A stretch of 64,000 nucleotides of DNA from an uncultured Gemmatimonadota bacterium (lineage in GTDB: Bacteria; JAAXHH01): NCBI GenBank assembly GCA_951812955.1, contig OX638340.1, positions 992,001-1,056,000 on the forward strand, given 5' to 3'. Position numbers and translations under genes: made by a program. A model generated the notes under the pieces. That model did not search any database and was not told the DNA's origin. It was given only the letters and a program-made list of their open reading frames with translations. The stretch's first letter is position 1; each line of letters starts with the position of its first letter. Below are positions 11,126 through 64,000 of the stretch, piece after piece.

Positions 11126-11824
11126 CTATATTAAACCCTTGCCGGCGAGGCTGGTAAAGGATTTTCGGCCTATGATGATGTGATCCAGCACCTTGATGTC
11201 GATCATCTGGCCCGCGTCCACGAGTTGGGCCGTGATCTTGAGGTCGTCCTGGCTCGGGGTGGGATCGCCGCTGGGATGGTTGTGTACGAATATCACGGAC
11301 GCGGCCGAATCGAGGATGGCGGGCTTGAACACCTCGCGGGGATGGACGATGCTTGCCGTAAGACTGCCCACCGATACGGTCACGCCACGGATCAGGCAGT
11401 TGCGCGCGTCGAGCATCAGGACCATGAAGATCTCTTTTCGCAGATCCCTGAGTCTCGGCATGAAGTAGCGCGCCACGTCGGTACTTGAGACGAAGGTCTT
11501 CTTGTCCATGTCCTGCGCTTCGAGCCGGCGGCCGATTTCGATGGCGGAGGCGATCTGGGCGGCTTTGACGGGCCCTACCCCCGACACCTGGCACAACTCG
11601 CTCAATTCCCGGGTGGCGAGGTGGCGCAGTCCCCCGAAATGCTGCAGCAGGTCCCGGGATATGTCAATGACGTCCTTCCCCCCGGTACCGTTCCCGGTGC
11701 GCAGCAACAGCGCGATCAGTTCGGTGTCCGAAAGGGTATGGATTCCGTACTTAAGCAACCGCTCTCTGGGTTTCTCGTCTTCGGGCCATTCCTTGATCGG
11801 GGTAATTCCCTGCAAATCGGTCAT
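11126..11824 (-). CDS. radC: RadC-like JAB/MPN domain protein (UPF0758). The probable start is the ATG at 11824, preceded by GAGGGA.
   Basis: The N-terminus IKEWPEDEKPRERLLKYGIHTLSDTELIALLLRTG is a helix-hairpin-helix motif. The C-terminal JAMM motif is HNHPSGDPTPSQDDLKIT. Confidence 0.7.
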   Translation of the reverse strand: MTDLQGITPIKEWPEDEKPRERLLKYGIHTLSDTELIALLLRTGNGTGGKDVIDISRDLLQHFGGLRHLATRELSELCQVSGVGPVKAAQIASAIEIGRRLEAQDMDKKTFVSSTDVARYFMPRLRDLRKEIFMVLMLDARNCLIRGVTVSVGSLTASIVHPREVFKPAILDSAASVIFVHNHPSGDPTPSQDDLKITAQLVDAGQMIDIKVLDHIIIGRKSFTSLAGKGLI

Positions 11825-11904
11825 CGTATGTTCCCTCTGTCCTGGTCGGCGAACCATTGTACGTTGACCGATTTAGTCGAAATCCCGCCGGGGAATCTCG
11901 TATG

Positions 11905-12747
11905 CTATCCTGCCTCCTGACCGCGGCCCTCCGGTGTATCGCTATCTGTCTCCGGCGTGCCGCCGGCAACCGCTGGTTTCAATGCGTCCACGAAGGGCTT
12001 GAACAGATCGATGGGGACGGGGAACAGCGTGGTGGAGTTATTCTCCGCCGCCACGACCGACAGGGTCTGCAAGTAACGCAACTGAATGGCTACGGGATGG
12101 GTGCCCATGACATGGGCGGCTTCCGCCAGTTTCTCCGCGGCCTGCTGCTCGCCCAGGGCGTTGATGACCTTGGCCCGGCGTTCCCGTTCCGCTTCCGCCT
12201 GCTTGGCCATGGCCCGCTGCATCTCGAGGGGCAGGTCGACGTTCTTTATGACGACCATGGAGACCTTGATGCCCCACGGTTCGGTCTGCTGGTCCAGCAG
12301 TACCTGCAGGTCCTCGTTGATCTTGTCCCGGTTGGAAAGGAGGTCGTCTAGTTCCACTTGCCCGAGTACGCTTCGCAGCGAAGTCTGGGCCAGTTGATGG
12401 GTCGCCTGCAGGAAATCCTCCACCTCGGTGATTGCCCTCTCCGGGTCAATGACACGGAAGTAGATCACCGCGTTGACCTTGATGGACACGTTGTCCCGGG
12501 TGATCACGTCCTGGGCAGGCACGTCCTTGGTCACGGTACGCAGACTCACCTTCTCCATCTTGTCGACCCCGGGGATCAGGATCACGATGCCCGGTCCGTT
12601 TTTACCGATCAGGGCCTTGGAAAGGCGGCCCAGCCGGAAGATCACGCCCCGCTCGTACTCGCGCAGAATCTTGACCGCGTTCGTGAACAGGATGATGAGG
12701 AACAGGACGATTACGATCGTCGAGAGCGAAAATCCGTCAAACCCCAT
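11905..12747 (-). CDS. SPFH/Band 7 (stomatin-like) membrane protein. It forms the usual pair with the upstream NfeD protease, which it overlaps by 11 nt.
   Basis: An N-terminal TM helix is followed by a stomatin signature ([16 protein letters not shown]..., RVIDPERAI) and a C-terminal coiled coil rich in Ala/Glu/Arg. Confidence 0.75.
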
Positions 12748-14074
12748 GGGAGTCCTCCCCTTGTTTCGTTGCGTCCGCGCTTGAATCCAGGCTTTCTACC
12801 TGCAATCGCAGACCGTTGACCTTCAAGACCCGAATCGGCGTATCGGGTTCGATAGGCGCATCGCTCGTCGCAAACCAGTACTCGCCGTGGACGAACACCT
12901 TGCCGCTCCGGGCGTCCACGGCCGTGCGCGCGCGTCCCGTTTCGCCGATCAGCCCCTGGCTGCCGGTGGTCGTGGGCCGCTTCTGGGCCTTCAGCGCGTA
13001 GCCCACGGCAAACAACACGAAGGCCCCGGTCGCGATCACAGCCGGGATGATGGCGTACAGGGATATGCGCAGGTAGGGATAGGGCGAATCGATGAGCATC
13101 ATCGAACCGATCGTGAAGGCGACGGCGCCGCCCAGGGTCAGCAGACCGCCGCTGACGAGAAACAGTTCCGTCACGAAAAGCCCGAGTCCCAGCAGGAGCA
13201 GCAGCAGCCCGGCGTAGTTGATGGGCAGCGTCTGCAGGGCGAAGAGCCCTATGATGACGCACATGCCGCCCACGACGCCGGGGAATATGGCGCCGGGATT
13301 GATGAACTCGTAGATGAGCCCGTAGAATCCGAGCATCATCAGGAGGTAGGCGATGTTGGGATTGGAGAGCACGTTCAGCACCCGGTGGTTCCAGTTCATT
13401 TCCCTGATCTGTACCTCGGCGTCCTTCGTACGCAATACCCGGCTGCCTTCCCTCACTTCCACGACGGTTCCGTCGATCTGAACGAGCAGGGAATCCAGCG
13501 TGGCGACGTTGAGTTCCACGACGTTCTGCTCTACCGCTTCCCGGTCGGTCAGGGCCACGCTCTTCCTTACGGCCTGTTCCGCCCAGTCCGCGTTCCGTCC
13601 GTGCTTGTCGGCGATGGAACGGATGTAACTCACGGAAAAGTTCTCTATCTTTTCCTGCATGGTCGAGTCCGCCACCGCGCCGCCAATGCCAACCGGACTG
13701 GCCGCCCCAATGCTCGTTCCCGGCGCCATGGCCGCGACGTGGGCGCTCATGGTGATGAACACGCCCGCCGATCCGGCGCCCGCACCGCTGGGCGCCACGT
13801 AGACCACGACCGGCACATTCGACGCGAGCATGTCCTTGATGATCAACTGCGTGGACTCGAGGAGGCCGCCGGGCGTATCGAGCATGATCACCAGGCACTC
13901 CGAACGGTCGTCTTCGGCTCTTTCTATTGCGGCGGACACGTGCTGGACGCTGACCGGACCGATCGGGCCTGTCAGCTTGATGACGTCGACCCGGGTCGCG
14001 GCCCCCGTCGCATCGGTCCACGCCAGCGTGACGGCCAGCAGCATGCAGCTGAGGATTCTTGACGGTTTCATCAT
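12737..14074 (-). CDS. NfeD-family membrane-bound serine protease (ClpP-class) with a C-terminal OB domain
   Basis: A signal peptide is followed by a ClpP-like domain ([16 protein letters not shown]...[11 protein letters not shown]). Multiple TM helices follow, then a C-terminal beta-rich domain. The gene is coupled to the stomatin gene. Confidence 0.75.
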
Positions 14075-14113
14075 GATCCGGCCTGTTGGGTTTGTGTTCG
14101 GAATCAGCAGCGG

Positions 14114-16150
14114 CTACGGCCGATGATTCGGATTCAGCAGGTGAACGATTTGCACGGCCTGAAACAGCGCCGCCGGTTCAATCTGGGGCCTGAGGGACCG
14201 GCGCCTCGGGAACAGCGTGGTTTCTCCCATCATGGGCGGCGCCACGACGACCTCGACGAGTCCGGGGTTTATCTTGATGTTTCGCCTCGGACACTTGGGC
14301 CAGATGGAATGTATCCCCCGGAAAGCCATGGGAATGAGCACGACGTCGGGCGGGATCTTGCTGAACAGGCCGTGTTGCAGGGGGATGGACTGGATGTCGA
14401 AAGCCGCCGTCGTACCCGCGGCATAGATGATGCCCGGTCGTTTTTCCAGCAGTCCGGCGAAACGCTGGGTCGCGTTGTTGGTATCCCCCGCGCGGGGCAG
14501 GACCACGTAGCCGTCGATTTCTTCGAGCAGTCGGTCGAATTCAGCGGCGTTCACGCCGAACAGCGTCGTGCTCCATGACCCCAGGCGCAGCGTTACGTAC
14601 TCGGTCAGGCCCGACCTAGACAGGATGGTGCAGGGACGCGAGTCCTCCCAGCCGAGGGCGTCCAGCAGGACGCGGGATTGTAGCACTTTGTACATGACCG
14701 GATGATCGAAGACGCTCTGGTGGGTGGGAAAGAAAAGGACTTTGTAACGACCCTCGTGCAACTTGAGCACACGGGCCAGTTCGCCGACCATCGGATCGAC
14801 GTGCACCTTGACCGTGATCCCGAAGATCTTCAGCGTCTTCTCGGACCAGGCCAGGCTGTTCTGCCACGCCGCCTCGAGTTTTTCCTCCTCATCCAGCCCC
14901 TCCTCTTCGATCTCGAGTTTGGTGCGGACATACCGCCAGGATGCCCCGATCCACCGGACCAGCCTCGTGGCGCGCTGAATCGGAGAATACCTGGCGTTCC
15001 TTCCCACATGGGGATACTCCAGGAAATGGCCCGTGGCGCTTCGGTCCAGCAGCTGCGGCACCTCCATGGGCTCCAGCATGGAGGAGAGTTCGTCGGGGAT
15101 TTTCGCCTCATCCTCTCCGTTCTTCATGTGCTGGTTGATCCTGTGGATGACCAGGTTACATTTCTCCATGAGGCCGTTGGACAGGTCTATCATGTCCCGC
15201 GTCAGGCTCGTATAGTGGTGACCGTACCAGTACCCCGTCGGCTTGAGTTGCGCGGGATTCTCCTGGTGCGCCTGGAAGAACTCCACCATCATGGCCTGAC
15301 CGAGCAGGATATCCTCCTGTATGCCGTCGATCTTGCGCTGGAGGTACTTGCTCGGTACGTGCCGGCGGCAGAACTCGGCCAGCAGTTCGGCGTCGCTGAT
15401 GATCTTCCACACCGCGCAACCGAACCAGGCGAAGTTGGTATACGTATTGAAGCGAACGGCGAGCAGTTCTCCGGCGGCCAGATATTCGAGCGTATTCTGG
15501 GCCGTGTTGTGAAATATCTCCCTCAGCGTTGAGCGGGTTTCCTTGCCCTTGAGCGTGCATTCGTACGTCGCCTGCCAGAGGGGGTCGTCCTCCGGAACGA
15601 TGTCCTTGAGTTTCTCGGCGACGGGCTGGGCGTGGGCCAGGGGCACGCGGGACAGCCTGGCCCCGGCCAGGGCGGCCTCGCCTTCGTCCGGAGTAAAAAC
15701 GTTACTCGCCCTGAGTTCCTCGACATAGATGGTCTGGTAAAGTTCGAGAAACTGGGCTGTCGCTCCCTGTCCCGTCCGCAGGAACTGTTCCCTTATGCGG
15801 GCGTAGAGCTGCACGGCCTGGTAGTAATCGGGGGCGACCCGCCTGAACTGGTCGTAGGCTTCGCCCATCCGCTGGTCCCGAAGCCGGGGAACCCCCTCGT
15901 AAATCGCCCCGATCAGCTTCGCGCGGTAACCCAGGCCTTCCAGTCCAATGGGCCCTTCCGGCGACCGGGAGGGCGGCCACTTCAGGAGATTGGGATCGAC
16001 CCCTTCGAAGTACCCTTCCGAATTCGCCAGGTCCAGTACGCCTTGCGCCGACTGGTCGTACACAGTGAGCAGGACATCCACGTTTCGGATCAGCGTCTGG
16101 TGGTCGAACCAGATCGAGGACGTATCGATTTTGTCTGACGGTATGCTCAT
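14114..16150 (-). CDS. Large (678 aa) protein. Its C-terminal third resembles a glycerolipid acyltransferase (HxxxxD motif, PlsB/LPLAT-like). The N-terminal ~430 aa have no function I can assign.
   Basis: FFPTHQSVFDHPVMYKVL (H-x4-D acyltransferase block I) is followed by Gly-rich blocks (IIYAAGTTAAFD) resembling LPLAT motif III. No other family is recognisable. Confidence 0.35.
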   Translation of the reverse strand: MSIPSDKIDTSSIWFDHQTLIRNVDVLLTVYDQSAQGVLDLANSEGYFEGVDPNLLKWPPSRSPEGPIGLEGLGYRAKLIGAIYEGVPRLRDQRMGEAYDQFRRVAPDYYQAVQLYARIREQFLRTGQGATAQFLELYQTIYVEELRASNVFTPDEGEAALAGARLSRVPLAHAQPVAEKLKDIVPEDDPLWQATYECTLKGKETRSTLREIFHNTAQNTLEYLAAGELLAVRFNTYTNFAWFGCAVWKIISDAELLAEFCRRHVPSKYLQRKIDGIQEDILLGQAMMVEFFQAHQENPAQLKPTGYWYGHHYTSLTRDMIDLSNGLMEKCNLVIHRINQHMKNGEDEAKIPDELSSMLEPMEVPQLLDRSATGHFLEYPHVGRNARYSPIQRATRLVRWIGASWRYVRTKLEIEEEGLDEEEKLEAAWQNSLAWSEKTLKIFGITVKVHVDPMVGELARVLKLHEGRYKVLFFPTHQSVFDHPVMYKVLQSRVLLDALGWEDSRPCTILSRSGLTEYVTLRLGSWSTTLFGVNAAEFDRLLEEIDGYVVLPRAGDTNNATQRFAGLLEKRPGIIYAAGTTAAFDIQSIPLQHGLFSKIPPDVVLIPMAFRGIHSIWPKCPRRNIKINPGLVEVVVAPPMMGETTLFPRRRSLRPQIEPAALFQAVQIVHLLNPNHRP

Positions 16151-17691: not shown

Positions 17692-18060
17692 TCAGGCCCG
17701 GTAAATGCCGTAGACGAGTAGAATCCAACCGATGACGAACGCCACGCCGCCCAGTGGGGTCACCGCACCGAGCCACCGGACGCCCGCGAGGCTCAGCACG
17801 TAAAGGCTGCCTGAAAACAGCACCGTGCCCGCGATGAACGCCCAACCCGCCGACGAGGGTATCGCATCAGGCCAGCGCGAAACCGCCCAGGCCGTGAAGA
17901 GCAGGCCGAAGGCGTGATACATCTGGTACCGCACGGCGGTCTCGAAGATCTCCAGCATTTCGGGAGACACCCGGTCTCGCAGCCCGTGGGCGCCAAAGGC
18001 TCCCGCGATCACGCCCAGGAGCGCCGAGACGCCTCCGGTTATCGCGAATAGTTTATCCAT
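17692..18060 (-). CDS. DUF423 family small membrane protein (4 TM helices). I use the internal ATG at 18060.
   Basis: MDKLFAITGGVSALLGVIAGAFGAHGL... The YgdD/DUF423 pattern (GAFGAHG) is present. Confidence 0.5.
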   Translation of the reverse strand: MDKLFAITGGVSALLGVIAGAFGAHGLRDRVSPEMLEIFETAVRYQMYHAFGLLFTAWAVSRWPDAIPSSAGWAFIAGTVLFSGSLYVLSLAGVRWLGAVTPLGGVAFVIGWILLVYGIYRA

Positions 18061-18114
18061 GGATGTTCTGCCTTGCGGCAACTTCCAATCCGGTGCGGCG
18101 ATTGACAAGATTCC

Positions 18115-18969
18115 CTACCAGATCGGCGCCAGCCAGCCGCCGTCCACGGGCAGGGCCGTGCCGGTGATCCATTCGGCATCGTCCGACGCGAAAAACACGC
18201 AGGCCCGGCCGATATCCTTCGGCAGCCCCAGCCTGGGAAGGGGCGTCTTTTCGAGCGCTTCGTCGACTTGCGCCTGGGTCAGGTAATCCTGGATGGGCGT
18301 TTCGATATAGCCAGGACAAATTGTATTGGCCGTTACGCCGTGGGACGCCAGCTCCACCGCGGTATCCCGGGTGAGATTCACGACCCCGGCCTTGGCCGGC
18401 GCGTACGCCGGTCCGCCTCCGCCGTGAAAGGCGTGCACGGAAGCGATGTTGATTATCCTCCCCGCGCGGGATTCCTTCAGGTGGGGCACGGCGGCGCGCG
18501 TGGTCAGGAACAGGGCCCGCAGGTTGATGCCCATGATGCGGTCCCAGGTGTCTACAGGGGTCGTCTGGCTGTCCCCTGGTTCGAAAATACCCGCGTTGTT
18601 GACCAAAATGTCCAGGCCGCCGAAGGTCTCCAGCGTCCGCCCTACCAGGCGGCCGACCGCCGCTTCGTCCGACACGTCGGTCTGTACGAAGTGCGCCTCT
18701 GAGCCCATCGCGCGCAATGCTTCCACGGTAGGCGTCGTCACGTCCTGATCGTGGTACTTGCCCGGCCTGGGCCTTTCGACGAGGTCGCAGACTACGACGC
18801 GGGCCCCCTCCCTGGCCAGTTCGATGGATATACCCCGACCTATACCGGAACTGCCGCCCGTGACGATAGCGACCCGATTTTCGAGTATCAAGTTTTCCTC
18901 TGGGGTTGCCTGGGATGCGATTGGAAATGGTCCTGGATTGATTATATACAGATCGCAAAAAAGGGGCAA
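18115..18969 (-). CDS. SDR-family short-chain dehydrogenase/reductase. The true start may be the TTG at about 18886, which is preceded by GAGGAA. The ATG start would give a 38-aa extension atypical of SDRs.
   Basis: TGGSSGIGRGISIELAREGARVVV (Gly-rich NAD(P) site), NNAG and the YxxxK catalytic region (AYAPAKAG) are present. Confidence 0.75.
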   Translation of the reverse strand: MPLFCDLYIINPGPFPIASQATPEENLILENRVAIVTGGSSGIGRGISIELAREGARVVVCDLVERPRPGKYHDQDVTTPTVEALRAMGSEAHFVQTDVSDEAAVGRLVGRTLETFGGLDILVNNAGIFEPGDSQTTPVDTWDRIMGINLRALFLTTRAAVPHLKESRAGRIINIASVHAFHGGGGPAYAPAKAGVVNLTRDTAVELASHGVTANTICPGYIETPIQDYLTQAQVDEALEKTPLPRLGLPKDIGRACVFFASDDAEWITGTALPVDGGWLAPIW

Positions 18970-19077
18970 GGCAAGTGTTTAAGTCGCGTGGCCAGAAATG
19001 GATTGCCTTTTTGAGAACCGGCCTTAGATATATACATTTCACGCCTGTCCAGTCCCATACCAACGAAGGAGGTTCCC

Positions 19078-20512: not shown

Positions 20513-21790
20513 TCACCTGGACCGGGGCCGTCTGAAGGTTTCGGGGATAACCCGCTGCACCCCCTCGATCACTTGCTCTTCCACTTCATCCGTGAAGCGG
20601 TTGGGCAATCCGAAGTATACCGTGGCGTCACCGCCTTCGTACCCACCCTCCTTCCATATCCTTCGGGACGGTATGTAGCCGGGGAAGTCATTCGCGTAAG
20701 CGCCGATCCAGATCTTCGCCGGATTGTACATACGTCGCAGCCTGGCGGCATAGTCCGCGACCACCTCCCCGGCCAGGAAGACGATGGAGAGTTCATCACC
20801 GAATGACCAGCCCTGGACCGGGTAACTGAGTGCCGCGGGGACTTCCACGCCTCGGTCCATCCGCGCGATCCACTGCCGGGCATGATAGCCCGCCGCACCC
20901 TCTTCCTCCGCCGTGGCCAGCCAGTCCTCGCGTGAAGGCAAGGAGTCATATGGCAGCGAGGCGTGGACCAGGCGGCATCTGATCCCGTCGGGAAGGGGCC
21001 GGGCGGGTATCCCCAGCAGCCGATCCACTTCTAACGCGATATCCTCTCCGTGACGGCGGGAATGTGATAAGCCCGTGCGCGGAAAGGGATTCGCATTACC
21101 GGCGCACCCGATGGTGACCAGGGCGACGGCGCCCGGGTGCCTTCGACTGATACGCTCAGCCGCGAATCCCGCCCAGTCGCCGCACATGAAGTTGTCCGCG
21201 GGACCGAATGTCGTACAGTGACAGGCATAGCTGACCCAGACCGCGCGCAGGCCGCCGTCCGGATCATCGACCCGTAACATGGGCATCACGTGATCCACGG
21301 GTCCAATCTGCGCGCGTCGATTCACCGCGAACCCGACGTGTCCCTCGCCGTAGGTCAACCTGGCCGGCCTACGTTCCGACAACGCACGCAGCCCGGCTTC
21401 CACCAGGCGTTCCTTCACATCAGCTGTATAGCGGTCGATTTGCCGCTGGTGCTCGGCCGGGATATCCGTACCGAACAGCATGGGGGCAGCGCCGGACAGC
21501 ATGGGTGCGTTGTGGGTGTGTGTGTAGCACAGAACGATGCGTTCCCGGTCAACCCCCGCCTGCCTGCCCAGTTCCCTCGCGACGGACTCCGTCATGGATT
21601 CGGTCACGCCGCAATTCTCCAGGACCAGCAGCAGAACCGGCCGCTCCGCGCCGATGGCCAGTGCACGGGCATACAGCGTCGACTTGATCTTCGCCGTTTC
21701 ATTCCGCCGCGCGCCGTAACCGCTCAACCGCACCGGGTAATCAGGGGTTACATCGACTTCAGATACGCCGGCTGAAACCAACTCGCTCAT
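20513..21790 (-). CDS. Neutral/alkaline ceramidase-like hydrolase. It matches the N-terminal catalytic domain only (425 aa); the C-terminal domain found in full-length ceramidases is missing.
   Basis: VDVTPDYPVRLSGYGAR matches the ceramidase D(I/V)TP-x-GY(A/G) motif. LCYTHTHNAPML matches the Zn-ligand THTHSGP motif. Both are recalled family signatures, not database hits. Confidence 0.45.
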   Translation of the reverse strand: MSELVSAGVSEVDVTPDYPVRLSGYGARRNETAKIKSTLYARALAIGAERPVLLLVLENCGVTESMTESVARELGRQAGVDRERIVLCYTHTHNAPMLSGAAPMLFGTDIPAEHQRQIDRYTADVKERLVEAGLRALSERRPARLTYGEGHVGFAVNRRAQIGPVDHVMPMLRVDDPDGGLRAVWVSYACHCTTFGPADNFMCGDWAGFAAERISRRHPGAVALVTIGCAGNANPFPRTGLSHSRRHGEDIALEVDRLLGIPARPLPDGIRCRLVHASLPYDSLPSREDWLATAEEEGAAGYHARQWIARMDRGVEVPAALSYPVQGWSFGDELSIVFLAGEVVADYAARLRRMYNPAKIWIGAYANDFPGYIPSRRIWKEGGYEGGDATVYFGLPNRFTDEVEEQVIEGVQRVIPETFRRPRSR

Positions 21791-21835: not shown

Positions 21836-23692
21836 TCAATACCACTCCGTCCTGTGGGGCGTTCCGGGGAAAAACACCGCGTCGACCACCAGCGAAAGGG
21901 CGACGCCCATGAGAAACCCGACGATCACTCCCGTGAAGAACGGCTGCGCGGCACGATACATCCGCACGCCGCCGATACGAATCAAGACAATCTGCAGCAG
22001 CCACGCGAGGAAAATCGGCAGAAACGCGTTCCTCACCACGCCGCCCACGTCGCCGATGGCCATGCCGACCGGATGTAAGGGCCACCAGGTGAAAAAGACC
22101 CGGCCCGCGATGACCAGGCCGTTGATCAGCATGCCTGACAGCAGGAACAGGGTTTCAAGGGCCCCGATCTGAGATGCATTCGTCGCCCAGACGATGGTGC
22201 GTCCGAAGAAGAACGTGCCCAGGCCGCCGGGCTGGGTATACAGGTTGTTGGCGCCTGCCATATGGGCTGAATGGACCAGGGATACGACCGACAGGACGGC
22301 GCTTACGCCTATCGCCAGGCATATACAGCCGATCAGGCCACGACCCCGGTCTTCCATGCTGGTCTTCAACCAAGCGATGTGGGAGAATCCGACCATCGTG
22401 AATGTCCGCCAGTTCCGCGCGAACCCGTTAGCCATGCCCAGCACGTTGATGTCCCGCATGGAAAGGGACGCCGTTCCGATCATCCCGACCGTGAAGTAAT
22501 TGGGTTTTACGGTGAGTTCCGCCATGACAAGTCCTGATTCGGCGACCACCCTGGCCAGCACCAGGTAGAAAGTGAACATGACGACGAGAAACAGCACACC
22601 CACGGGTATGGAGAGTCCGGCGCTGTAAAGCCACAGAACGGCGAAAACCGATCCACCGGCCAGTCCGGCCAGCGCCCACCGGTAGGAGAACAGTTCCCGC
22701 GCTTCGTCCTCGTCCCGGACGGGCCGCCATGCCGCGCGCCACACCGTAGCCAGGTGCCGCCTCGCGGTCCAGACCAGCCAGGCCGCAAAGACGACCACGC
22801 CGCCCATGAATTGCATGCCGGTCAATCCGCCCTGGACCACGCTGCCGCTCGTCGAGAACATGCCCAGCCGGCTCAGCAGTCCCTGCTCCAGCACGCCGAA
22901 CAGCTGGAAAAACCAGAGGCTGAAGAGGATCTCCGCGGGCGCGAAGAAGGCGAAGGAAAGCGCGTAGAGATTCAAGTACAGCGGGATTCCGGGGAAGTAG
23001 GGTGCGATTTCAAGGGTGACCAGCGCCCCCGGATGAACGGGCAGCATGGGCAGGGCGCCCCAGTAGGCCGCACAGTTCCAGGCCATGGCGGAAAAAGCCA
23101 GCAGGAGCCCCGCCAGGAAGAGGCGGTTTCGCGGGAATCCTGGTCGATCCCGGTTCTGATCCCCGCCGGATTCCCCGATGAGCCGCAGGGCCGCTTCCGC
23201 CATGGGGAATCTCAGGCGTTCGTACTCCATCCACTGCCTGCGGAAGATCACCACGATACAGGCGCCGATCAGCAGAAGTGCGGCGAAGAGGCACAGCCAC
23301 CAGAAGACGGGGGTCAGCCAGACCGACCAGGGGATCTGCTGTCCCGGCTGAATCCCTTCGTAGAACCTCCGCGCCGATTCATAGTCGCTCAGGTAGACCC
23401 AGTGAGGCAGATGGGGCAGGATGAGTTCATCCCACCGGTTCTCCGGCGAGGCGAAGTAGGCAGGCGCCGCAATGGCGGAGACCATGTACCGGGAGACGCC
23501 AAGGTCGGGCATCATGGACGCCGCCCAGCCCATGGCGAAAACCGTGAGGAGTTCGGTGCGGGTCAACGCCCGTCCCGGGCAGCAGGCCCGGCAGATGAGG
23601 TTGGGAAGCAGTACGAGTGCGAGAAACGGAAGCAGAAAGCCGGAGGGCAGGTGGGCGAACAGCATGAAGTCGTATCCGCCGCGATCGGCCAT
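21836..23692 (-). CDS. Polytopic integral membrane protein of unknown function (618 aa, at least 12 predicted TM helices)
   Basis: Long hydrophobic segments run throughout. There are no recognisable catalytic motifs. The large antisense ORF 22754..23932 is a GC-frame artifact. Confidence 0.5.
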   Translation of the reverse strand: MADRGGYDFMLFAHLPSGFLLPFLALVLLPNLICRACCPGRALTRTELLTVFAMGWAASMMPDLGVSRYMVSAIAAPAYFASPENRWDELILPHLPHWVYLSDYESARRFYEGIQPGQQIPWSVWLTPVFWWLCLFAALLLIGACIVVIFRRQWMEYERLRFPMAEAALRLIGESGGDQNRDRPGFPRNRLFLAGLLLAFSAMAWNCAAYWGALPMLPVHPGALVTLEIAPYFPGIPLYLNLYALSFAFFAPAEILFSLWFFQLFGVLEQGLLSRLGMFSTSGSVVQGGLTGMQFMGGVVVFAAWLVWTARRHLATVWRAAWRPVRDEDEARELFSYRWALAGLAGGSVFAVLWLYSAGLSIPVGVLFLVVMFTFYLVLARVVAESGLVMAELTVKPNYFTVGMIGTASLSMRDINVLGMANGFARNWRTFTMVGFSHIAWLKTSMEDRGRGLIGCICLAIGVSAVLSVVSLVHSAHMAGANNLYTQPGGLGTFFFGRTIVWATNASQIGALETLFLLSGMLINGLVIAGRVFFTWWPLHPVGMAIGDVGGVVRNAFLPIFLAWLLQIVLIRIGGVRMYRAAQPFFTGVIVGFLMGVALSLVVDAVFFPGTPHRTEWY

Positions 23693-57714: not shown

Positions 57715-59390
57715 AGACCGACCCCATCACCCTGGAACTGATGCGCAACCGGTGGACCGGCATCGCGGAGGAAATGTGCGCCGCGCTGATCCGCACCAGT
57801 TACTCCACCAATATCAAGGACCGGCGCGACTGTTCCGCGGCCATCGTGCAGCCCACGGGGGAGATCCTGGCCCAGGCCGAGTCGGGCGTCCCCTTACACC
57901 TGGGCGTGATGCCAGGCGTGGTGAAGTCCATCCTGGAAGTCTATCCCGTGTCGGCCATGAAGCCTGGAGACGTCTACATCACGAACCTGCCGTATCCCGA
58001 AGGACCGGGCCATCTGCCGGATGTTTCCCTGGTATCCGCCATATTCTATGAAAACCGCGCGGTCGCACTGGCGGCATCCACCGCCCATCACGTGGACATG
58101 GGCGGGTTCGCACCGGGCAGCATGCCCTTCGGCGTGACGGAAATCTACCAGGAGGGCCTGCAGATCCCCCCGCTCCCCATTTTCAAGGGCGGACAGCTTG
58201 ACGAAGATATCTACAAGTTGATCAACCAGAACGTGCGGACGCAGTACGAGGTGCGGGGCGACCTGATGGCCCAGTACGCCTGCGCACAGATCGGCCAGCA
58301 GAGGGTAAGCGAACTCATGTCCAGGGAGTCGCCCGAAGAAGTAATCCACTACATGGACGAGATCCAGGACTACGCGGAACGACGGATGCGGGCGGGGATA
58401 GGGACCCTGCCCGACGGCGAGTACACCTTCGAGGACTACCTGGACGACGACGGCGTCACCGATACGCCAGTGAAGATCGCGGTCGCCCTGACCGTCTCGG
58501 GCGACGAACTGCGCGCGGACTTTTCGGGTTGCAGCGACCAGGTTCTGGGTCCGCTGAACGCGCGGCTGCCGGCGGCCGCTTCCTGCATAAGCTACGTGTG
58601 CAAGGCGGTGATCGATCCGGACCTGCCCGCGTGTGCCGGGGCGTACCGGCCCCTGGACATCTTCGCCCCCGAGGGATCCATCCTGCAGGCTACCTATCCG
58701 GCGGCCATCGGGAACGCCAACATCCTGACGGACCAGCGGGTCGTGGACGTGCTGATGGGCGCGCTGTACCAGGCCGCGCCCGACCGCGTATGCGCGGCCT
58801 GCAGCGGGGAGATGAACCTGGTAAATATCGGCGGAATCGATCCTGCTTCCGGGGAGTACTACAACTACGTGGAAACCTACGCCGGTGGGCAGGGCGCCAT
58901 GTTCGACATCGACGGAGAGGACGGCGTGCACACGCACCTCACCAACACACGGAACGCGCCGGTCGAAATCATGGAACGTACCTACCCGCTGCGGGTCGAG
59001 CGGTACGGCCTGATCCCGGATACGGAGGGGCCCGGCCGCCAGCGCGGAGGCTGCGGGATGATGCGGGAGCTGAAGTGCCTGGGTGAACGCACCATCATCA
59101 CCCTGGGTTCAGACCGCCGGAAGTTCACGCCCTGGGGGCTCGAAGGCGGCGGCAATGCGTCGGGCGCCCACTGTTACGTGATCGACAACGAAGGGCAGGT
59201 CAGGGAGATCCCTACCAAGGCCCATACCGAGCTTTACAGGGACGACGTCCTGCGGATCGAAACCCCCGGCGGCGGTGGCTGGGGAGACCCGGCCGAACGG
59301 GTCCGGGAGAAAGTGGAAGAGGATGTGCGAAACGAGCTCATTGGCCCGGAACGGGCGAGCGGACACTACAGATGGGGGAAGGATCAGTAA
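57711..59390 (+). CDS. hyuB: Hydantoinase/oxoprolinase B subunit (HyuB family). Its ATG overlaps the hyuA stop (ATGA).
   Basis: 559 aa. MKTDPITLELMRNRWTGIAEEMCAALIRTSYSTNIKDRRDCSAAI is the characteristic HyuB N-terminus. Confidence 0.8.
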   Translation: MKTDPITLELMRNRWTGIAEEMCAALIRTSYSTNIKDRRDCSAAIVQPTGEILAQAESGVPLHLGVMPGVVKSILEVYPVSAMKPGDVYITNLPYPEGPGHLPDVSLVSAIFYENRAVALAASTAHHVDMGGFAPGSMPFGVTEIYQEGLQIPPLPIFKGGQLDEDIYKLINQNVRTQYEVRGDLMAQYACAQIGQQRVSELMSRESPEEVIHYMDEIQDYAERRMRAGIGTLPDGEYTFEDYLDDDGVTDTPVKIAVALTVSGDELRADFSGCSDQVLGPLNARLPAAASCISYVCKAVIDPDLPACAGAYRPLDIFAPEGSILQATYPAAIGNANILTDQRVVDVLMGALYQAAPDRVCAACSGEMNLVNIGGIDPASGEYYNYVETYAGGQGAMFDIDGEDGVHTHLTNTRNAPVEIMERTYPLRVERYGLIPDTEGPGRQRGGCGMMRELKCLGERTIITLGSDRRKFTPWGLEGGGNASGAHCYVIDNEGQVREIPTKAHTELYRDDVLRIETPGGGGWGDPAERVREKVEEDVRNELIGPERASGHYRWGKDQ

Positions 59391-59465
59391 CCAGACGGAC
59401 GGTTCGAAACTGAAAGTATGGACCTCGATGAAACCGTCGTTTAGGCGGGACGGCACGGGACGGCC

Positions 59466-60845
59466 ATGGTTAATGGAACCATACCAAAACGTATAGCCAT
59501 TATCGGCGGTGGGATATCCGGGCTGGGCGCAGCGTGGGCGTTGAATCAACATCCAGACCGGTTCGATTTCCGTATTTACGAAGCCCGGGAGCAGGTGGGC
59601 GGAAACGCAATCACCGCCGACATGCCGCAGGATGACGGCGGTTCCATTCCCTTCGACATTTCCGTCACCGCACTGATCCCATCGGTCTATCACCACATCC
59701 TGTTGTTGATGCGGAAGTTCGGCATCGAACTGCTCGATACCCGGTTCAACTACAGCGTGAAATACCATGGGCAGGTATACGCCCACGATTTCGACTCCGC
59801 CATCAGAAGGCAGCTGCAACCGGAGATTGTCCGGTTTCAACGGCTCCTGAAGCGTCTTCACCGGCTCGGCTGGCTGACCCATTCCCGGTCGAGGCTCGTC
59901 AACGCGCTCAATCCCTTAAATTACGTCAGCATGGGGACCGTGCTCAACCTGGGCGGTTTTTCAGGGGACTTCAGGTTCAAGATCCTGAAGCCCATGTTCG
60001 TCAATTTCCTGATGGCGACGAACGTGTTCGATATGCCCGCGTCGCTTTTTGCGCGGTACCTGGAGTTCTTCGATATCGAATCTGCGACGCCCATGCAGAC
60101 GTGGGACCAGGGCACGCGTCGTATCTACGAGCACCTTTCAGCCGGTTTCCGGGACAGGATATACCTCGGCCGGCCCGTACGAAAAGTGTACCGACGGCCG
60201 AACTGTGTCGTGATCGAGGATCCGGACGGAGTAGAGGAGACGTTCGACGAGGTGATCTTCGCCTGCAACGCGAACCAGACGCTGATGCTGCTCGACCGGC
60301 CCACGTTTCTGGAGCGGTACATTCTGTCGTCGATCCGTTATGAAAGCGAACTCCACAACCACACGGTCGTGCATTCGGACGCCTCCGTCCTGCCGGAGAA
60401 CGAAGTGAAACCGCTGGAGACGCGGAGCAATCATATTGAACAGTACGGGGCCAGGCCGGACAACTATGAAATAACCTACATCATGCACAACCAGCAGCCA
60501 TGGGCCAACCGGTCCGACAAACCCTGCCTGGTGACCTATAACCCGGTCACGCCCATCGACGAACGGAAGATCGTCAAGAAGTGGTGGTTCCAGCACATCG
60601 TGCATGATGTGCGCCATGTCGCCTGGCTCATCCATCTGTTCCGTTTCATCCAGGGCAGACGGCGGACCTGGCACTGCGGTGCCCATACCCTGATGAACAG
60701 CCAGGAAACCTGCTTTGTAACGGGACTCGCCGCGGCCTCGCAGATCGGCGCTGAATATCCCTTCAAAGACCCCCTGGCCAGGCGCATGTTCAATTATTAC
60801 GGAAGAATTCTGCACGGCTGGCGTTTCCGGAAGGCGAGAGGTTGA
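59466..60845 (+). CDS. FAD-dependent oxidoreductase of the amine-oxidase / phytoene-desaturase-like (CrtI-like) fold
   Basis: RIAIIGGGISGLGAAWAL...YEAREQVGGN is a dinucleotide-binding motif plus the GG-motif typical of the amine-oxidase family. The length is 459 aa. Confidence 0.55.
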   Translation: MVNGTIPKRIAIIGGGISGLGAAWALNQHPDRFDFRIYEAREQVGGNAITADMPQDDGGSIPFDISVTALIPSVYHHILLLMRKFGIELLDTRFNYSVKYHGQVYAHDFDSAIRRQLQPEIVRFQRLLKRLHRLGWLTHSRSRLVNALNPLNYVSMGTVLNLGGFSGDFRFKILKPMFVNFLMATNVFDMPASLFARYLEFFDIESATPMQTWDQGTRRIYEHLSAGFRDRIYLGRPVRKVYRRPNCVVIEDPDGVEETFDEVIFACNANQTLMLLDRPTFLERYILSSIRYESELHNHTVVHSDASVLPENEVKPLETRSNHIEQYGARPDNYEITYIMHNQQPWANRSDKPCLVTYNPVTPIDERKIVKKWWFQHIVHDVRHVAWLIHLFRFIQGRRRTWHCGAHTLMNSQETCFVTGLAAASQIGAEYPFKDPLARRMFNYYGRILHGWRFRKARG

Positions 60846-61001
60846 AAACCGCACCGGGTGACAGGGCTTCTACTGTCCAGTCAACATGCACCGAACGACG
60901 GAAATCCCGCGCGTATCTGCGCCGCCGCATTCCCCGCTACACCTGTTCGGGCCAAATCCTGCTTGTCGCGTTAATGCCTTGTAGTTATCATACTTACAGT
61001 G

Positions 61002-61016
61002 TGGAACACTATAGCG
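61002..61016 (+). promoter_or_regulatory. Possible sigma54-type promoter element (TGGAAC-N5-TAGC, with correct -24 GG / -12 GC spacing) ~75 nt upstream of the Rieske oxygenase gene. It sits in an AT-rich island.
   Basis: tggaacactatagcg has GG and GC separated as in the TGGCAC-N5-TTGC consensus. The match is weak at other positions. Confidence 0.2.
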
Positions 61017-61090
61017 TTTCTTGACCCCTGCGGCCCTTCGATACCCGGACGAATTCACCGGCGCCGAGGAGGATCACGGAAGGACTGGAT

Positions 61091-62167
61091 TTGCATACCT
61101 CCGAAACGATCGCAACCCCCATGGCCGACGCAGATACCGTACACCGTACCGGGCACGCTCCGGGTGGCCTACCCCCCTTCCCGGAAGGCTGGTACCTGGT
61201 AACCACGCGCGAAACCCTGTTGCGGGAAAAACTGATCGAGAAGATGTGGATGGGGGAGAACATCGTCGCATGGTGTGACGAGGAAGGCCGTATCTGCGTG
61301 GCCGACGCGGTTTGTCCGCACCTGGGTTCCGACCTGGGACCGCAGGTCGGCGGCAAGATTCACGGTGGCCGCCTGGTCTGTCCGTTCCACGGGTTCGAGT
61401 TCGATGCGACGGGTCAATGCGTCGCGACGCCCAACGCCCCGGCGCCGAAAGCCGCGAAACTGACCGTGTATGAAACCCGTGAGATCTCCGGCCTGGTCTT
61501 CGCGTGGTACGGAATCGACGGCCGTCCCGCGCACTGGCACCTGCCGGACGATCCTCCGACCGGTAACGAGTGGGGCGAACTGGGATTCAGAACCCTGCGT
61601 TTTCGCAGCCATCCACAGGAAACGGCGGAGAACTCCGTGGATATCGGACACCTGCGCTACGTACACGGCTATGACAATGTGGACCCGGTCGGCCCGGTGA
61701 CGGTGGACGGAGCCTACCTGAGGAGCTGTTTCAACTTCAAGCGCGTCCGCAGCATTATGGGCTTGAAGGACCTCACCTATGAAGTATCGGCCGTCGCCCA
61801 TATCCACGGTCTGGGATACTCCTATGTCGAAGTCCACGAAAAAACGATCGATATGCACTTGAGACTGTGGGTACTGCCCACGCCGATCGATGGCAGCCTG
61901 ATCGATCTCGTACTGGCGGGCCAATTGCAGGGAATCCGCAGACCCCGGCGTTTCATCTCGGGCCTGGGGTTCCTCCCCATGGCGTTGCGCAACCGCTTGA
62001 TGAAGCAAATCATGCTTTCACAGCAAAAACGGGACGTACTGCAGGACGTGGTGATCTGGGAACGAAAGCAGTTTCGCACGCCGCCCCGGCTGTGCAAGGC
62101 CGATGGGCCCATTGGCCTTTACCGGCGCTATTGCCTGCAGTTCTATCCTGAACAACCGAAAGCCTGA
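61091..62167 (+). CDS. Rieske [2Fe-2S] non-haem iron oxygenase alpha-subunit-like protein of the KshA / Neverland / SdmA-type steroid-active clade
   Basis: Rieske motif CPHLGSDLG...VCPFHGFEFDATGQC matches KshA CRHMGGDLS...CPFHDWRWGGDGRC. The downstream block ENSVDIGHLRYVHG aligns with the KshA mononuclear-iron block DNVTDMAHFFYIHF. The KshA sequence is recalled from memory. Confidence 0.65.
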   Translation: MHTSETIATPMADADTVHRTGHAPGGLPPFPEGWYLVTTRETLLREKLIEKMWMGENIVAWCDEEGRICVADAVCPHLGSDLGPQVGGKIHGGRLVCPFHGFEFDATGQCVATPNAPAPKAAKLTVYETREISGLVFAWYGIDGRPAHWHLPDDPPTGNEWGELGFRTLRFRSHPQETAENSVDIGHLRYVHGYDNVDPVGPVTVDGAYLRSCFNFKRVRSIMGLKDLTYEVSAVAHIHGLGYSYVEVHEKTIDMHLRLWVLPTPIDGSLIDLVLAGQLQGIRRPRRFISGLGFLPMALRNRLMKQIMLSQQKRDVLQDVVIWERKQFRTPPRLCKADGPIGLYRRYCLQFYPEQPKA

Positions 62168-62255
62168 CCAATGCGACCCTTATCGGAGACAGGTAGAAGG
62201 TGGTCCGGTCCTGGAGGAGACCGCTCAAGCCTGCTGATATCTGCCGCTCTATAAG

Positions 62256-63050
62256 CTATCCGCCGTCCTCCAGCTCAGCCAGAGTCTCCAGCACCCCCTG
62301 CTGGATGAACTCCTCGTAGGCGTCCCGTGTCGGTAGTTCGGCCGCCTTCGACAGCATTTTCGTGGCCCGCGCCCGGCCGTCCTCGCGATCAAGATATGGA
62401 AGCCTGAGCGCATATTCAAACAGCACGACCTTCGAGTCCGGAGCTAGCTCCAGAGCCCGCTCGTAATGGATGACGGCGTTTTTCCGATTCCCCTTGTACA
62501 AGAACCGTGCAACGCGCCCGGCACGTGCGATGTCGGCGTGCCAGCCCCCTAAGGCCATATGCGCCTCTGCGAAGTCGGGGGAGATGGTGAGCGCGGTCTC
62601 GAGCAAATCGCGTGCCCTGCCCGCCAGACCTCGGCGAAATGCAGTTAGTTTACCGATACTCTGTGCATATCGGCCAACAGCGTGCGCGGATTGGAAATAT
62701 GCTTCGGAATTGGTCGAATCGATGCGCACTGCTTCTTCCCCGTACTCTATCGCGCGTTCCAAAATACCGTTCCGGTCCTCCTCAGTCGCCACATGGTGGC
62801 CGTACACCGCGAGCGATTGCGCCGCAAGGGCGTAGCCTTCGGATGTACCGACGGCTGACGCGAGATCCGCCGCCTCGAGAAAACGGCCTTCCTCGAAATC
62901 GGTCCTTGCTTCATCGATCGACTGCGCGTTCGCGCCAGCCGGGTCGGCCAGGCTGGCCGCAATAATCACGAATCCCGCAACTGCCACGAAACGGACAACT
63001 GCCGCGAATCCCGCAACGACTGCGAAACGGTAAAACTGGGTAAGGGTCAT
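62256..63050 (-). CDS. TPR-like repeat protein with an N-terminal hydrophobic anchor or signal
   Basis: 264 aa. Hydrophobic N-terminus (FAVVAGFAAVVRFVAVAGFVIIAASLA) followed by Ala/Glu/Tyr-rich helical repeats consistent with TPR or Sel1-like repeats. Confidence 0.45.
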   Translation of the reverse strand: MTLTQFYRFAVVAGFAAVVRFVAVAGFVIIAASLADPAGANAQSIDEARTDFEEGRFLEAADLASAVGTSEGYALAAQSLAVYGHHVATEEDRNGILERAIEYGEEAVRIDSTNSEAYFQSAHAVGRYAQSIGKLTAFRRGLAGRARDLLETALTISPDFAEAHMALGGWHADIARAGRVARFLYKGNRKNAVIHYERALELAPDSKVVLFEYALRLPYLDREDGRARATKMLSKAAELPTRDAYEEFIQQGVLETLAELEDGG

Positions 63051-63208
63051 CTGATATCCCCAGTTCTATTCAGCGGACGGGTACTCGCATCTCGGCTCGA
63101 CGCTTTAGTGTCTTTCAGCGATCAGTCATGCGAATCCACACCATATGGACAAACGCGGTGCTGCCCGACGGCATCGGCTATGGACCGATTCGACTAGGTC
63201 AACGGGGT

Positions 63209-64000
63209 CTAAAGAGGTTTACGAGCCAGGAAACAGTACAGCGGCGTGAAGATACCCGACCTGCCGCCCTCGACATAAGCGTCAGCAGTTCGATCCAGGA
63301 GTCGGACCACTTCCGAATACCCCTTCGGAATCAGACTTAGCGCTTCGGCCATCTTCGATCCTGCGATCACGGCCTTGCGACCCCAAGGGAGCCTGTTCAG
63401 TGCGTTCCCCAAAGTCCCATGCCGACTCTCCATTGGCCGATACCAAGGCGTGGAGGGTTCATTCCGGACGTCTCGGTCCATCCCTTCGATGACGTGGAAT
63501 CCCGCCGCTTCAAGCCCGTGATTCACTTCCCTGAACGTCGCAATGTCGTTCAGCGCAATGCCGCGCATGAGGTCCTGCTCAATGGCCCGGTGCCGGTTGT
63601 CTTTCGGATCGAATTTCTCGGTCAGACACATTTCCTGACCCCAAAACAGGGCTCCTGGTTTGAGTACGCGGAAGATCTCCGCGAAAGCGCGTTCCTTGTC
63701 TGGCGCGTGGCACGTTGACTCGATGGCATAGGCTCGGTCAAACGTCTCGTCCTCAATGCCGCCCATATCCATGAAGCTACACGTCTCGTAATCGACCATG
63801 TGGCCGAGTCCCGCTTCAGCGTTCAACCGCTTTGCCTTATCCAATTGGAGTTCGTTGATGTTGATTCCGACAACCCGGACGCCGGCCTCCCGGACGACGC
63901 GACGCATCGGACCGCCGATTCCACAACCAACGTCGGCCACCGTCATACCCTGCTCCAACTCCAGCTTCGAGATCATCAACCGCTGATGCCGGATTATGGA
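63209..64000 (-). CDS. Sterol C-24 methyltransferase (ERG6/SMT1 family). It is truncated at the window edge: the reading frame is open past 64000 and ~100 N-terminal residues are missing.
   Basis: Collinear alignment with yeast Erg6 recalled from memory. Ours : Erg6 pairs are [15 protein letters not shown] : [41 protein letters not shown] : [34 protein letters not shown] : IYKVLKPGG, TPWYRPM : IPWYYPL and [17 protein letters not shown] : GKSKLFTPMMLFVARKP. The YAIE(A/S)TCHAP block is SMT-specific. Confidence 0.8.
   Translation of the reverse strand, partial: [263 protein letters not shown]

Follow-up and report, generated by a model that had tools for sequence, protein, structure and literature searches.

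The window analysed here is a 64,000-nucleotide stretch of DNA from an uncultured Gemmatimonadota bacterium (contig OX638340.1, positions 992,001 to 1,056,000), and our subject is the group of genes at its end, between positions 59466 and 64000, where an initial annotation had seen a candidate bacterial sterol-tailoring locus centred on a sterol methyltransferase (SMT). Four genes lie in this region.

59466-60845, plus strand: flavin adenine dinucleotide (FAD) oxidoreductase of 459 amino acids, intact, with Pfam matches to NAD_binding_8 (46.3 bits) and Amino_oxidase (54.7 bits).
61091-62167, plus strand: KshA-family Rieske non-haem-iron oxygenase of 358 amino acids with a TTG start, intact, with Pfam matches to Rieske (58.2 bits) and KshA_C (80.3 bits).
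62256-63050, minus strand: tetratricopeptide-repeat (TPR) protein of 264 amino acids with a hydrophobic N-terminus, matched by several Pfam TPR families.
63209-64000, minus strand: the 3' 263 codons and stop of a methyltransferase gene, SMT-b, with a Sterol_MT_C match of 57.5 bits (Pfam cut-off 21.7 bits) and a frame that is open to the window edge.

SMT-b is the name we give to a divergent SMT subfamily, the canonical SMT copies being called SMT-a. The N-terminal 84 codons of the gene lie outside the window; the full-length window methyltransferase (P0001, 347 amino acids) is 100% identical over the part that the window encodes. Comparison with other genomes places SMT-b, a fusion of a GPP34 domain with a cytochrome P450 (GPP34-P450), the KshA-like Rieske oxygenase and the LkcE-like flavoenzyme in one horizontally transferred unit. 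This grouping is new. There are earlier, separate reports of bacterial SMTs, of the SMT-b subfamily and of the GPP34-P450 fusion, and we found no description of the cassette as one unit in the literature searched: the main text of the report on GPP34-P450 fusions (PMC11706023) does not contain the words 'sterol', 'methyltransferase' or 'lipid', and in Brown et al. 2023 (PMC10070321) 'Rieske' is absent from the main text and 'GPP34' and 'P450' from the supplements.

One genome per GTDB species was scanned for relatives of SMT-b, and 525 genomes were found to carry one. Bacterial SMTs had been described as rare in the initial annotation, a view that does not hold in the sponge-symbiont niche. 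For linkage, the sample was the best 80 of the 525 (SMT-b 72-92% identical), which cover at least 12 lineages, among them Gemmatimonadota, Longimicrobiales, Latescibacterota, Dehalococcoidia and other Chloroflexota, Nitrospirales, Nitrospinota, Acidimicrobiia, Binatia, Rhodothermales and Thermodesulfobacteriota. They are uncultured metagenome-assembled genomes (MAGs) throughout, and where their names are informative these point to sponge or coral holobionts. Neighbour counts refer to genes within 10 kb of SMT-b in these 80 genomes, in which open reading frames (ORFs) were clustered after a greedy choice of non-overlapping ORFs. L-numbers denote comparison loci, with coordinates that run within each locus.

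As the initial annotation had stated, the gene at the window edge aligns with Erg6: P0001 is 35% identical to the yeast protein (E 4e-66), and both of the blocks that had been quoted, YAIE(A/S)TCHAP and the C-terminal FTPL...ARKP, are present in the window protein. Class-I methyltransferase domains are found as well (Methyltransf_11, 67 bits). Grouping with cyclopropane-fatty-acid (CFA) or mycolic-acid synthases had been named as one outcome that would overturn this assignment; the best such matches reach 30-53 bits and cover the Rossmann part only. Because of this difference from the Erg6 match, SMT-b is a member of the SMT family and not a CFA synthase.

Residue numbers follow the yeast Erg6 sequence. 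The numbering agrees with the positions given in a preprint by Brown and Welander (10.64898/2025.12.19.695621), in which 25 positions are listed as conserved across all functional SMTs. Of these, 18 are invariant in the 80 SMT-b orthologues and 3 more are nearly so, with conservative exceptions at 189, 341 and 357; the Region II SAM-binding (S-adenosylmethionine-binding) and essential residues H90, D125, G127, G129, P133 and E195 are invariant in all 80 and in P0001. Judged by its residues, SMT-b thus keeps the catalytic and SAM-binding positions while its predicted sterol pocket is changed. All 80 orthologues carry Y81M, F89L and Y223Q, and 79 have Leu in place of T219 and Ile at position 249, to which the window protein adds G86S and T78S. 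The Region I motif G84-W-G-x-x-F89-H-F91, the aromatic Y81 and the Region IV Y223 are therefore not those of SMT-b, whereas SMT-a copies at the same loci have F89 in 9 of 9 cases, Tyr or Phe at 81, and Y223 in 8 of 9. The two types are 42-43% identical to one another, and the positions altered in SMT-b are those reported to govern the number of methyl transfers. A second SMT-family gene lies a few kilobases from SMT-b in some of the comparison loci (L032, 4636-5670; L075, 15108-16133; L034, 3890-4912); in Nitrospirales this second gene is a canonical SMT-a, reported to produce (epi)codisterol.

The Rieske protein retains its full set of metal ligands, with C75, H77, C97 and H100 of the Rieske cluster and H187, H192 and D319 of the iron site invariant in 40 homologues. 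Among solved proteins it is most similar to KshA5, KshA1 and KshA (E ~1e-22), and KshA leads by structure too, with a Foldseek template-modelling (TM) score of 0.73 to 4qdc. The CxH...CxxH cluster, the 2-His-1-carboxylate (here 2-His-1-Asp) site, the KshA_C domain and the fold are all those of a KshA-type enzyme. Orthology with KshA (PDB 2zyl, 4qdc) is not supported at an identity of 22-24%, and no KshB-like or steroid-catabolic genes were present in any neighbourhood examined, so that both the partner and the catabolic context of KshA are missing. Of the two classes proposed in the initial annotation, KshA and SdmA, the former therefore survives as a likeness. The latter was rejected: with the NCBIfam SdmA model NF052579, whose cut-off is 600 bits, the protein reaches 31.8 bits, and residues 34-114, the Rieske domain, alone align. 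SdmA homologues do occur in the Nitrospirales loci L053 and L032, as separate genes that encode Rieske and VanA_C domains and adjoin an SdmB of the epimerase/3-beta-hydroxysteroid dehydrogenase type.

The flavoenzyme had been described as having a CrtI/amine-oxidase fold, of which the amine-oxidase part was confirmed. It is homologous over its full length to LkcE, the lankacidin amide oxidase/cyclase (6f7l), in searches of the PDB (E 6e-26 as a single sequence, 5e-31 as a family profile), and the profile also matches, again over the full length, the polyunsaturated fatty-acid isomerase of P. acnes (2b9w; E 7e-11); the GxGxxG motif is invariant in the family. A CrtI-type desaturase was rejected, since the NCBIfam models for CrtD (16 bits, cut-off 550) and zeta-carotene desaturase (15 bits, cut-off 622) scored far too low, and no CrtI structure was among the PDB matches of the family profile. 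By sequence, the protein falls in a family without a characterised member, whose nearest kin are LkcE and the P. acnes isomerase, amine-oxidase-fold FAD enzymes too; the relationship is a distant one, and the pathways in which these two relatives act are unrelated. Across Gemmatimonadota, Acidimicrobiia and Chloroflexota, orthologues share at least 79% identity. With every available homologue above 79% identity, the AlphaFold model is poor (mean predicted local distance difference test score, pLDDT, 53.5), too poor for a fold search or an active-site comparison.

The nearest public relative with genomic context (L081) is collinear with the end of the window at 91-94% nucleotide identity. Beyond SMT-b it continues with a 675-amino-acid GPP34-P450 fusion, an AcrB-type RND (resistance-nodulation-division) pump, a membrane-fusion protein and an outer-membrane factor. 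Because of this synteny, at 93% identity, the window genome should likewise continue past position 64000 with a GPP34-P450 fusion and then an RND pump and its companions. The initial annotation had expected the remainder of a sterol pathway to lie beyond the edge; the predicted next genes are of other kinds, and the 64-kb window itself contains no SdmB, oxidosqualene cyclase (OSC), squalene epoxidase, CYP51 or ERG24.

The neighbour counts show how regularly these genes travel together. An intact GPP34-P450 fusion is found near SMT-b in 72 of the 80 genomes, with fragments in 3 more, and in 61 of 74 cases it is less than 400 bp away; even an SMT-b relative of just 43% identity still adjoins a GPP34-P450 gene. 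The P450 domain of the fusion has Methylococcus CYP51 and other steroid P450s as its best solved relatives (E 5e-18). Of the 80 neighbourhoods, 61 contain an intact Rieske gene and 8 more contain fragments of one; for the flavoenzyme gene the numbers are 34 and 5. A transporter of the RND superfamily is present in 62, of the AcrB type in 37 and of two MMPL/sterol-sensing-domain types in 15 and 10. The arrangement of the cassette genes varies, with about 20 distinct orders and orientations. Because of these counts and orders across genomes, SMT-b and GPP34-P450 are the core pair, and the Rieske and flavoenzyme genes are frequent but dispensable. Sampling from the other genes led to the same cluster: from the Rieske side, a compact Acidobacteria cassette was found with the order Rieske-FAD-GPP34-P450-SMT-AcrB, and from the flavoenzyme side an Acidimicrobiaceae locus with the order Rieske-FAD-P450-MMPL-GPP34-P450-P450. 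The initial suggestion of a tailoring cassette is supported in that the genes make up a functional unit of steroid character, with the same SMT, Rieske and flavoenzyme families co-located, in many arrangements, in dozens of genomes from many phyla.

Both of these versions of the cluster have further neighbours of note. The Acidimicrobiaceae loci (L087 and L088) carry two extra stand-alone P450 genes, at 11476-12678 and 17723-19036, and no SMT within 10 kb. The Acidobacteria cassette (L085) is flanked by a large ankyrin-repeat protein, at 1637-3184, and by Planctomycete-type PSD/PSCyt proteins. Sponge symbionts typically carry eukaryote-like proteins of this sort.

In the closest GTDB relative (L001), the flavoenzyme gene is gone and the Rieske gene is reduced to about 49 codons. 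The corresponding segment (12208-14744, equivalent to window positions 59357-62022) holds a transglutaminase-like/TPR ORF and an unannotated ORF instead, between flanks that are 86-95% identical. Remnants of the Rieske or flavoenzyme gene, with 13-62% of the full length and 59-82% identity, were seen in L005, L006, L017, L038, L042, L043, L053 and L054, which suggests that the two genes have decayed repeatedly and independently. Since they are lost or degraded in several genomes, we regard them as accessory to the SMT-b/P450 core.

The intact genes are well preserved. The ratio of non-synonymous to synonymous substitution (dN/dS) lies at 0.10-0.17 (flavoenzyme 0.10, SMT-b 0.14, Rieske oxygenase 0.17), equal to that of the hydantoinase gene next door; between phyla, synonymous sites differ by only about 0.47-0.6 per site. 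SMT-b identity does not track taxonomy, a Dehalococcoidia copy being nearer to the window than several Gemmatimonadota copies. The low synonymous divergence, the low dN/dS and the mismatch with taxonomy together indicate that the cassette spread horizontally and fairly recently, under purifying selection.

One orthologue of the window methyltransferase has been assayed. The SMT-b of a Nitrospirales locus (L032, 10001-11035) is 79% identical to the window protein, and because the gene spacing and the Erg6 identities agree, we matched it to IMG gene 2682229270, 'Nitrospira sp., coral reef MAG 2 of 2': SMT-a and SMT-b of this locus are 39.2% and 35.3% identical to Erg6 in our comparison, against published values of 38.81% and 35.63% (PMC10070321). 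Supplementary Figure 1 of the preprint lists the 'coral reef 2 of 2' SMT as having 'No activity' on desmosterol and 24-methylenecholesterol, and an A. aerophoba '2 of 2' SMT, 35.16% identical to Erg6, likewise appears there with 'No activity' (10.64898/2025.12.19.695621). The coral reef protein resembles that of the window in subfamily, in the leucine at position 89 and in its Rieske, FAD and GPP34-P450 neighbours; it differs in coming from another phylum and in lying beside a full sterol-synthesis cluster. The reported lack of product may mean that the enzyme uses another substrate, that it was poorly expressed in E. coli or that its function does not involve sterols.

The order of genes in this Nitrospirales locus is ERG24-sdmA-sdmB-SMTa / FAD-OMP-Rieske-SMTb-GPP34-P450 (OMP, outer-membrane protein). 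It further includes CYP51 and a fused squalene epoxidase-oxidosqualene cyclase, so that a complete sterol-synthesis cluster abuts the cassette. Sponge symbionts of the same phyla are reported to have sterol-synthesis clusters (PMC9531527), and clusters with SMT, sdmA and sdmB exist among sponge symbionts (PMC10070321). Such clusters (SMO-OSC, CYP51, ERG24, SdmA, SdmB and a canonical SMT in PMC10070321; the Ircinia 'CSGs' in PMC9531527) share with the cassette its niche, its phyla, horizontal transfer and an SMT-family gene. They are contiguous with it in Nitrospirales, whereas their core genes are absent from the window and from most cassettes; conversely, the KshA-like Rieske oxygenase, the LkcE-like flavoenzyme and the GPP34-P450 fusion lie outside the described bacterial sterol pathway.

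Taking these observations together, we consider it somewhat better than an even bet, with a probability of about 0.55, that the region at 59466-64000 forms an end of a horizontally transferred cassette, typical of sponge and coral symbionts, that serves as a mobile sterol-tailoring module with non-canonical chemistry. From the comparisons we infer a sterol substrate, an order of reactions and a site of methylation; a sterol is favoured because of the family relationships, because steroid enzymes are among the closest solved relatives, and because the cassette joins a sterol cluster in Nitrospirales and sterol clusters occur in the same phyla. In the proposed mechanism, the P450, the Rieske oxygenase and the flavoenzyme would hydroxylate or desaturate a sterol, or shift a double bond in it, the sterol being either host-derived or a product of the symbiont itself. 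SMT-b would then transfer the methyl group of SAM to the resulting olefin, on a substrate or at a position unlike those of the classical delta-24/C-24 reaction. The transporter could move the product to the cell envelope or the exterior, and the GPP34 domain might anchor the P450 at the membrane that holds the substrate.

Several results weigh against such a module. The 79%-identical orthologue gave no product with either of the two sterols listed for its assay in the preprint, and the pocket is altered. Sterol-core genes are found within 10 kb only in Nitrospirales and in one unclassified MAG, with none in the window. The similarity of the P450 domain to CYP51 is weak (68 bits), the identity of the Rieske protein to KshA is low, and the nearest characterised relatives of the flavoenzyme use a polyketide amide and a fatty acid, not steroids. 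Neither the Rieske oxygenase nor the P450 has a ferredoxin or reductase partner encoded in the cassette, and a number of genomes, the closest GTDB relative among them, lack the flavoenzyme and Rieske genes or carry degraded copies.

The main rival holds that the substrate is a lipid other than a sterol, and that SMT-b methylates its olefin; candidates are squalene and other acyclic or polycyclic triterpenoids, hopanoids, carotenoid-like polyenes and fatty-acyl chains. The inactivity of the orthologue on two sterols, as reported in the preprint's supplement, would follow naturally, as would the replacement of the sterol-pocket aromatics and the lack of a nearby sterol-core gene in most cassettes; the relative of the flavoenzyme in 2b9w, moreover, isomerises double bonds of fatty acids. 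In Botryococcus braunii, squalene and botryococcene are methylated by SMT-like enzymes. A non-sterol substrate sits less well with the fact that the solved proteins nearest to the Rieske oxygenase and the P450 are steroid enzymes, with the embedding of the cassette in a Nitrospirales sterol cluster and with the occurrence of sterol clusters in the same sponge-symbiont phyla (PMC9531527). We consider it unlikely, but a possibility to be kept in view.

A narrower form of the sterol-tailoring module is also conceivable, in which the cassette makes a sterol side-chain change in sponges at a site other than C-24, for example terminal C-26/27 methylation of delta-25 sterols, or a cyclopropanation. 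This proposal is a speculative one to which we attach a rather small chance. If it is true, a delta-25 example would be the conversion of (epi)codisterol to aplysterol or to skeletons of the 26-methylstigmastane type.

The published interpretation of the GPP34-P450 family is a different one. GPP34_L proteins (fusions of GPP34 with cytochrome P450, n = 656) are reported to be exclusive to sponge symbionts, alongside rare GPP34-Rieske fusions, and were proposed to modulate or evade phagocytosis (PMC11706023). This is the family that adjoins SMT-b in 72 of the 80 genomes and in L081; for the window the gene should fall just past the edge. Read in this way, the cassette would be a host-manipulation device in which GPP34 binds host phosphatidylinositol 4-phosphate (PI4P) and blocks phagosome maturation, while the neighbouring enzymes act on host lipids or are incidental. 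The restriction to sponge symbionts and the role of GPP34 as a eukaryotic PI4P binder (PMC11706023) speak in its favour, as do the ankyrin-repeat genes near the cassette in L085. A P450, however, requires haem, NAD(P)H and redox partners and should therefore function inside the bacterium, and inspection by eye found no obvious signal peptide at the N-terminus of the fusion. The tight linkage to a SAM methyltransferase, a Rieske oxygenase and RND exporters further points to small-molecule metabolism. We judge the host-manipulation account improbable as a replacement for a sterol-tailoring module, with which it would in any case be compatible if the product were a membrane lipid seen by the host.

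The reading nearest to that of the initial annotation, a canonical Erg6-type C-24 SMT that works with an SdmA-type C-4 demethylase in de novo sterol synthesis, fares worse still. It draws on the Sterol_MT_C domain, the YAIE(A/S)TCHAP and FTPL...ARKP blocks and the preserved catalytic residues of SMT-b, and on the precedent of sponge-symbiont sterol clusters with SMT, sdmA and sdmB (PMC10070321). A plain C-24 SMT is nevertheless hard to reconcile with the invariant Y81M, F89L and Y223Q changes, where SMT-a has aromatics, or with the 'No activity' entry of the preprint's supplement for the coral reef '2 of 2' orthologue. The SdmA component fails by its score, true SdmA homologues carrying VanA_C, and SdmB, OSC, CYP51 and ERG24 are all absent from the window. 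We regard this reading as quite improbable. Finally, steroid degradation by a KshA-like opening of ring B, suggested by the position of KshA as the solved protein nearest to the Rieske oxygenase, appears highly implausible given the 22-24% identity, the absence of KshB, KstD, Hsa and side-chain beta-oxidation genes from the neighbourhoods examined, and a constant partner that is a methyltransferase of biosynthetic type.

A sterol-tailoring module of this kind would offer an explanation for a puzzle in the SMT literature. SMT-b is widespread and highly conserved among the SMT-like genes of sponge symbionts, and yet the assayed member is listed in the preprint's supplement as inactive on standard substrates. 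Such inactive SMTs become explicable if their partners (the P450 fusion, the Rieske oxygenase and the flavoenzyme) must first make the true substrate, an idea that can be tested. The cassette is furthermore a candidate route to the unconventional sterol side chains of sponges; Brown et al. describe the enzyme for C-26 methylation as still undiscovered. Side-chain-alkylated steranes (24-isopropylcholestane and 26-methylstigmastane) serve as the oldest chemical evidence for animals. If the cassette does modify sterols at a site other than C-24, some 'demosponge-specific' sterols and sterane biomarkers would be bacterial rather than sponge-made, and GPP34-P450 fusions would be lipid-biosynthetic enzymes rather than phagocytosis effectors. 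The linkage described here connects the literature on bacterial SMTs with that on GPP34-P450 fusions as a hallmark of sponge symbiosis, and offers a metabolic alternative to the proposed role in phagocytosis.

The remaining genes of the region are less regular companions. The TPR gene sits between the Rieske and SMT-b genes, downstream of SMT-b and co-directional with it, and a copy was found in the SMT-b flank in 18 of the 80 genomes. In the PDB, the TPR protein matched designed or generic TPR proteins only. Its orthologue in L081 (11183-11932) has a precomputed match to PF21033 (RMD1-3), which is absent from the Pfam scan of the window protein. Upstream of the cassette lie hydantoinase A/B, GFO/IDH and MR/MLE genes, with synteny confined to the closest relatives. 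Scans of the window for promoters and terminators, Rfam families and tRNAs gave nothing informative.

The initial annotation had also taken an upstream ceramidase-like gene as a hint of other eukaryote-like lipids. This gene exists:

20513-21790, minus strand: ceramidase-like ORF of 425 amino acids, matching only the N-terminal part of PF04734 (Ceramidase_alk) at 43 bits (cut-off 32).

It lies 39 kb away from the cassette, and no link between the two was found. Further upstream, a 678-amino-acid ORF on the minus strand (14114-16150) has no Pfam match at E <= 0.001. The gene that adjoins the ceramidase-like ORF (21836-23692, minus strand) encodes a protein of 618 amino acids with DUF6785 and DUF6784 domains (337 and 60 bits).

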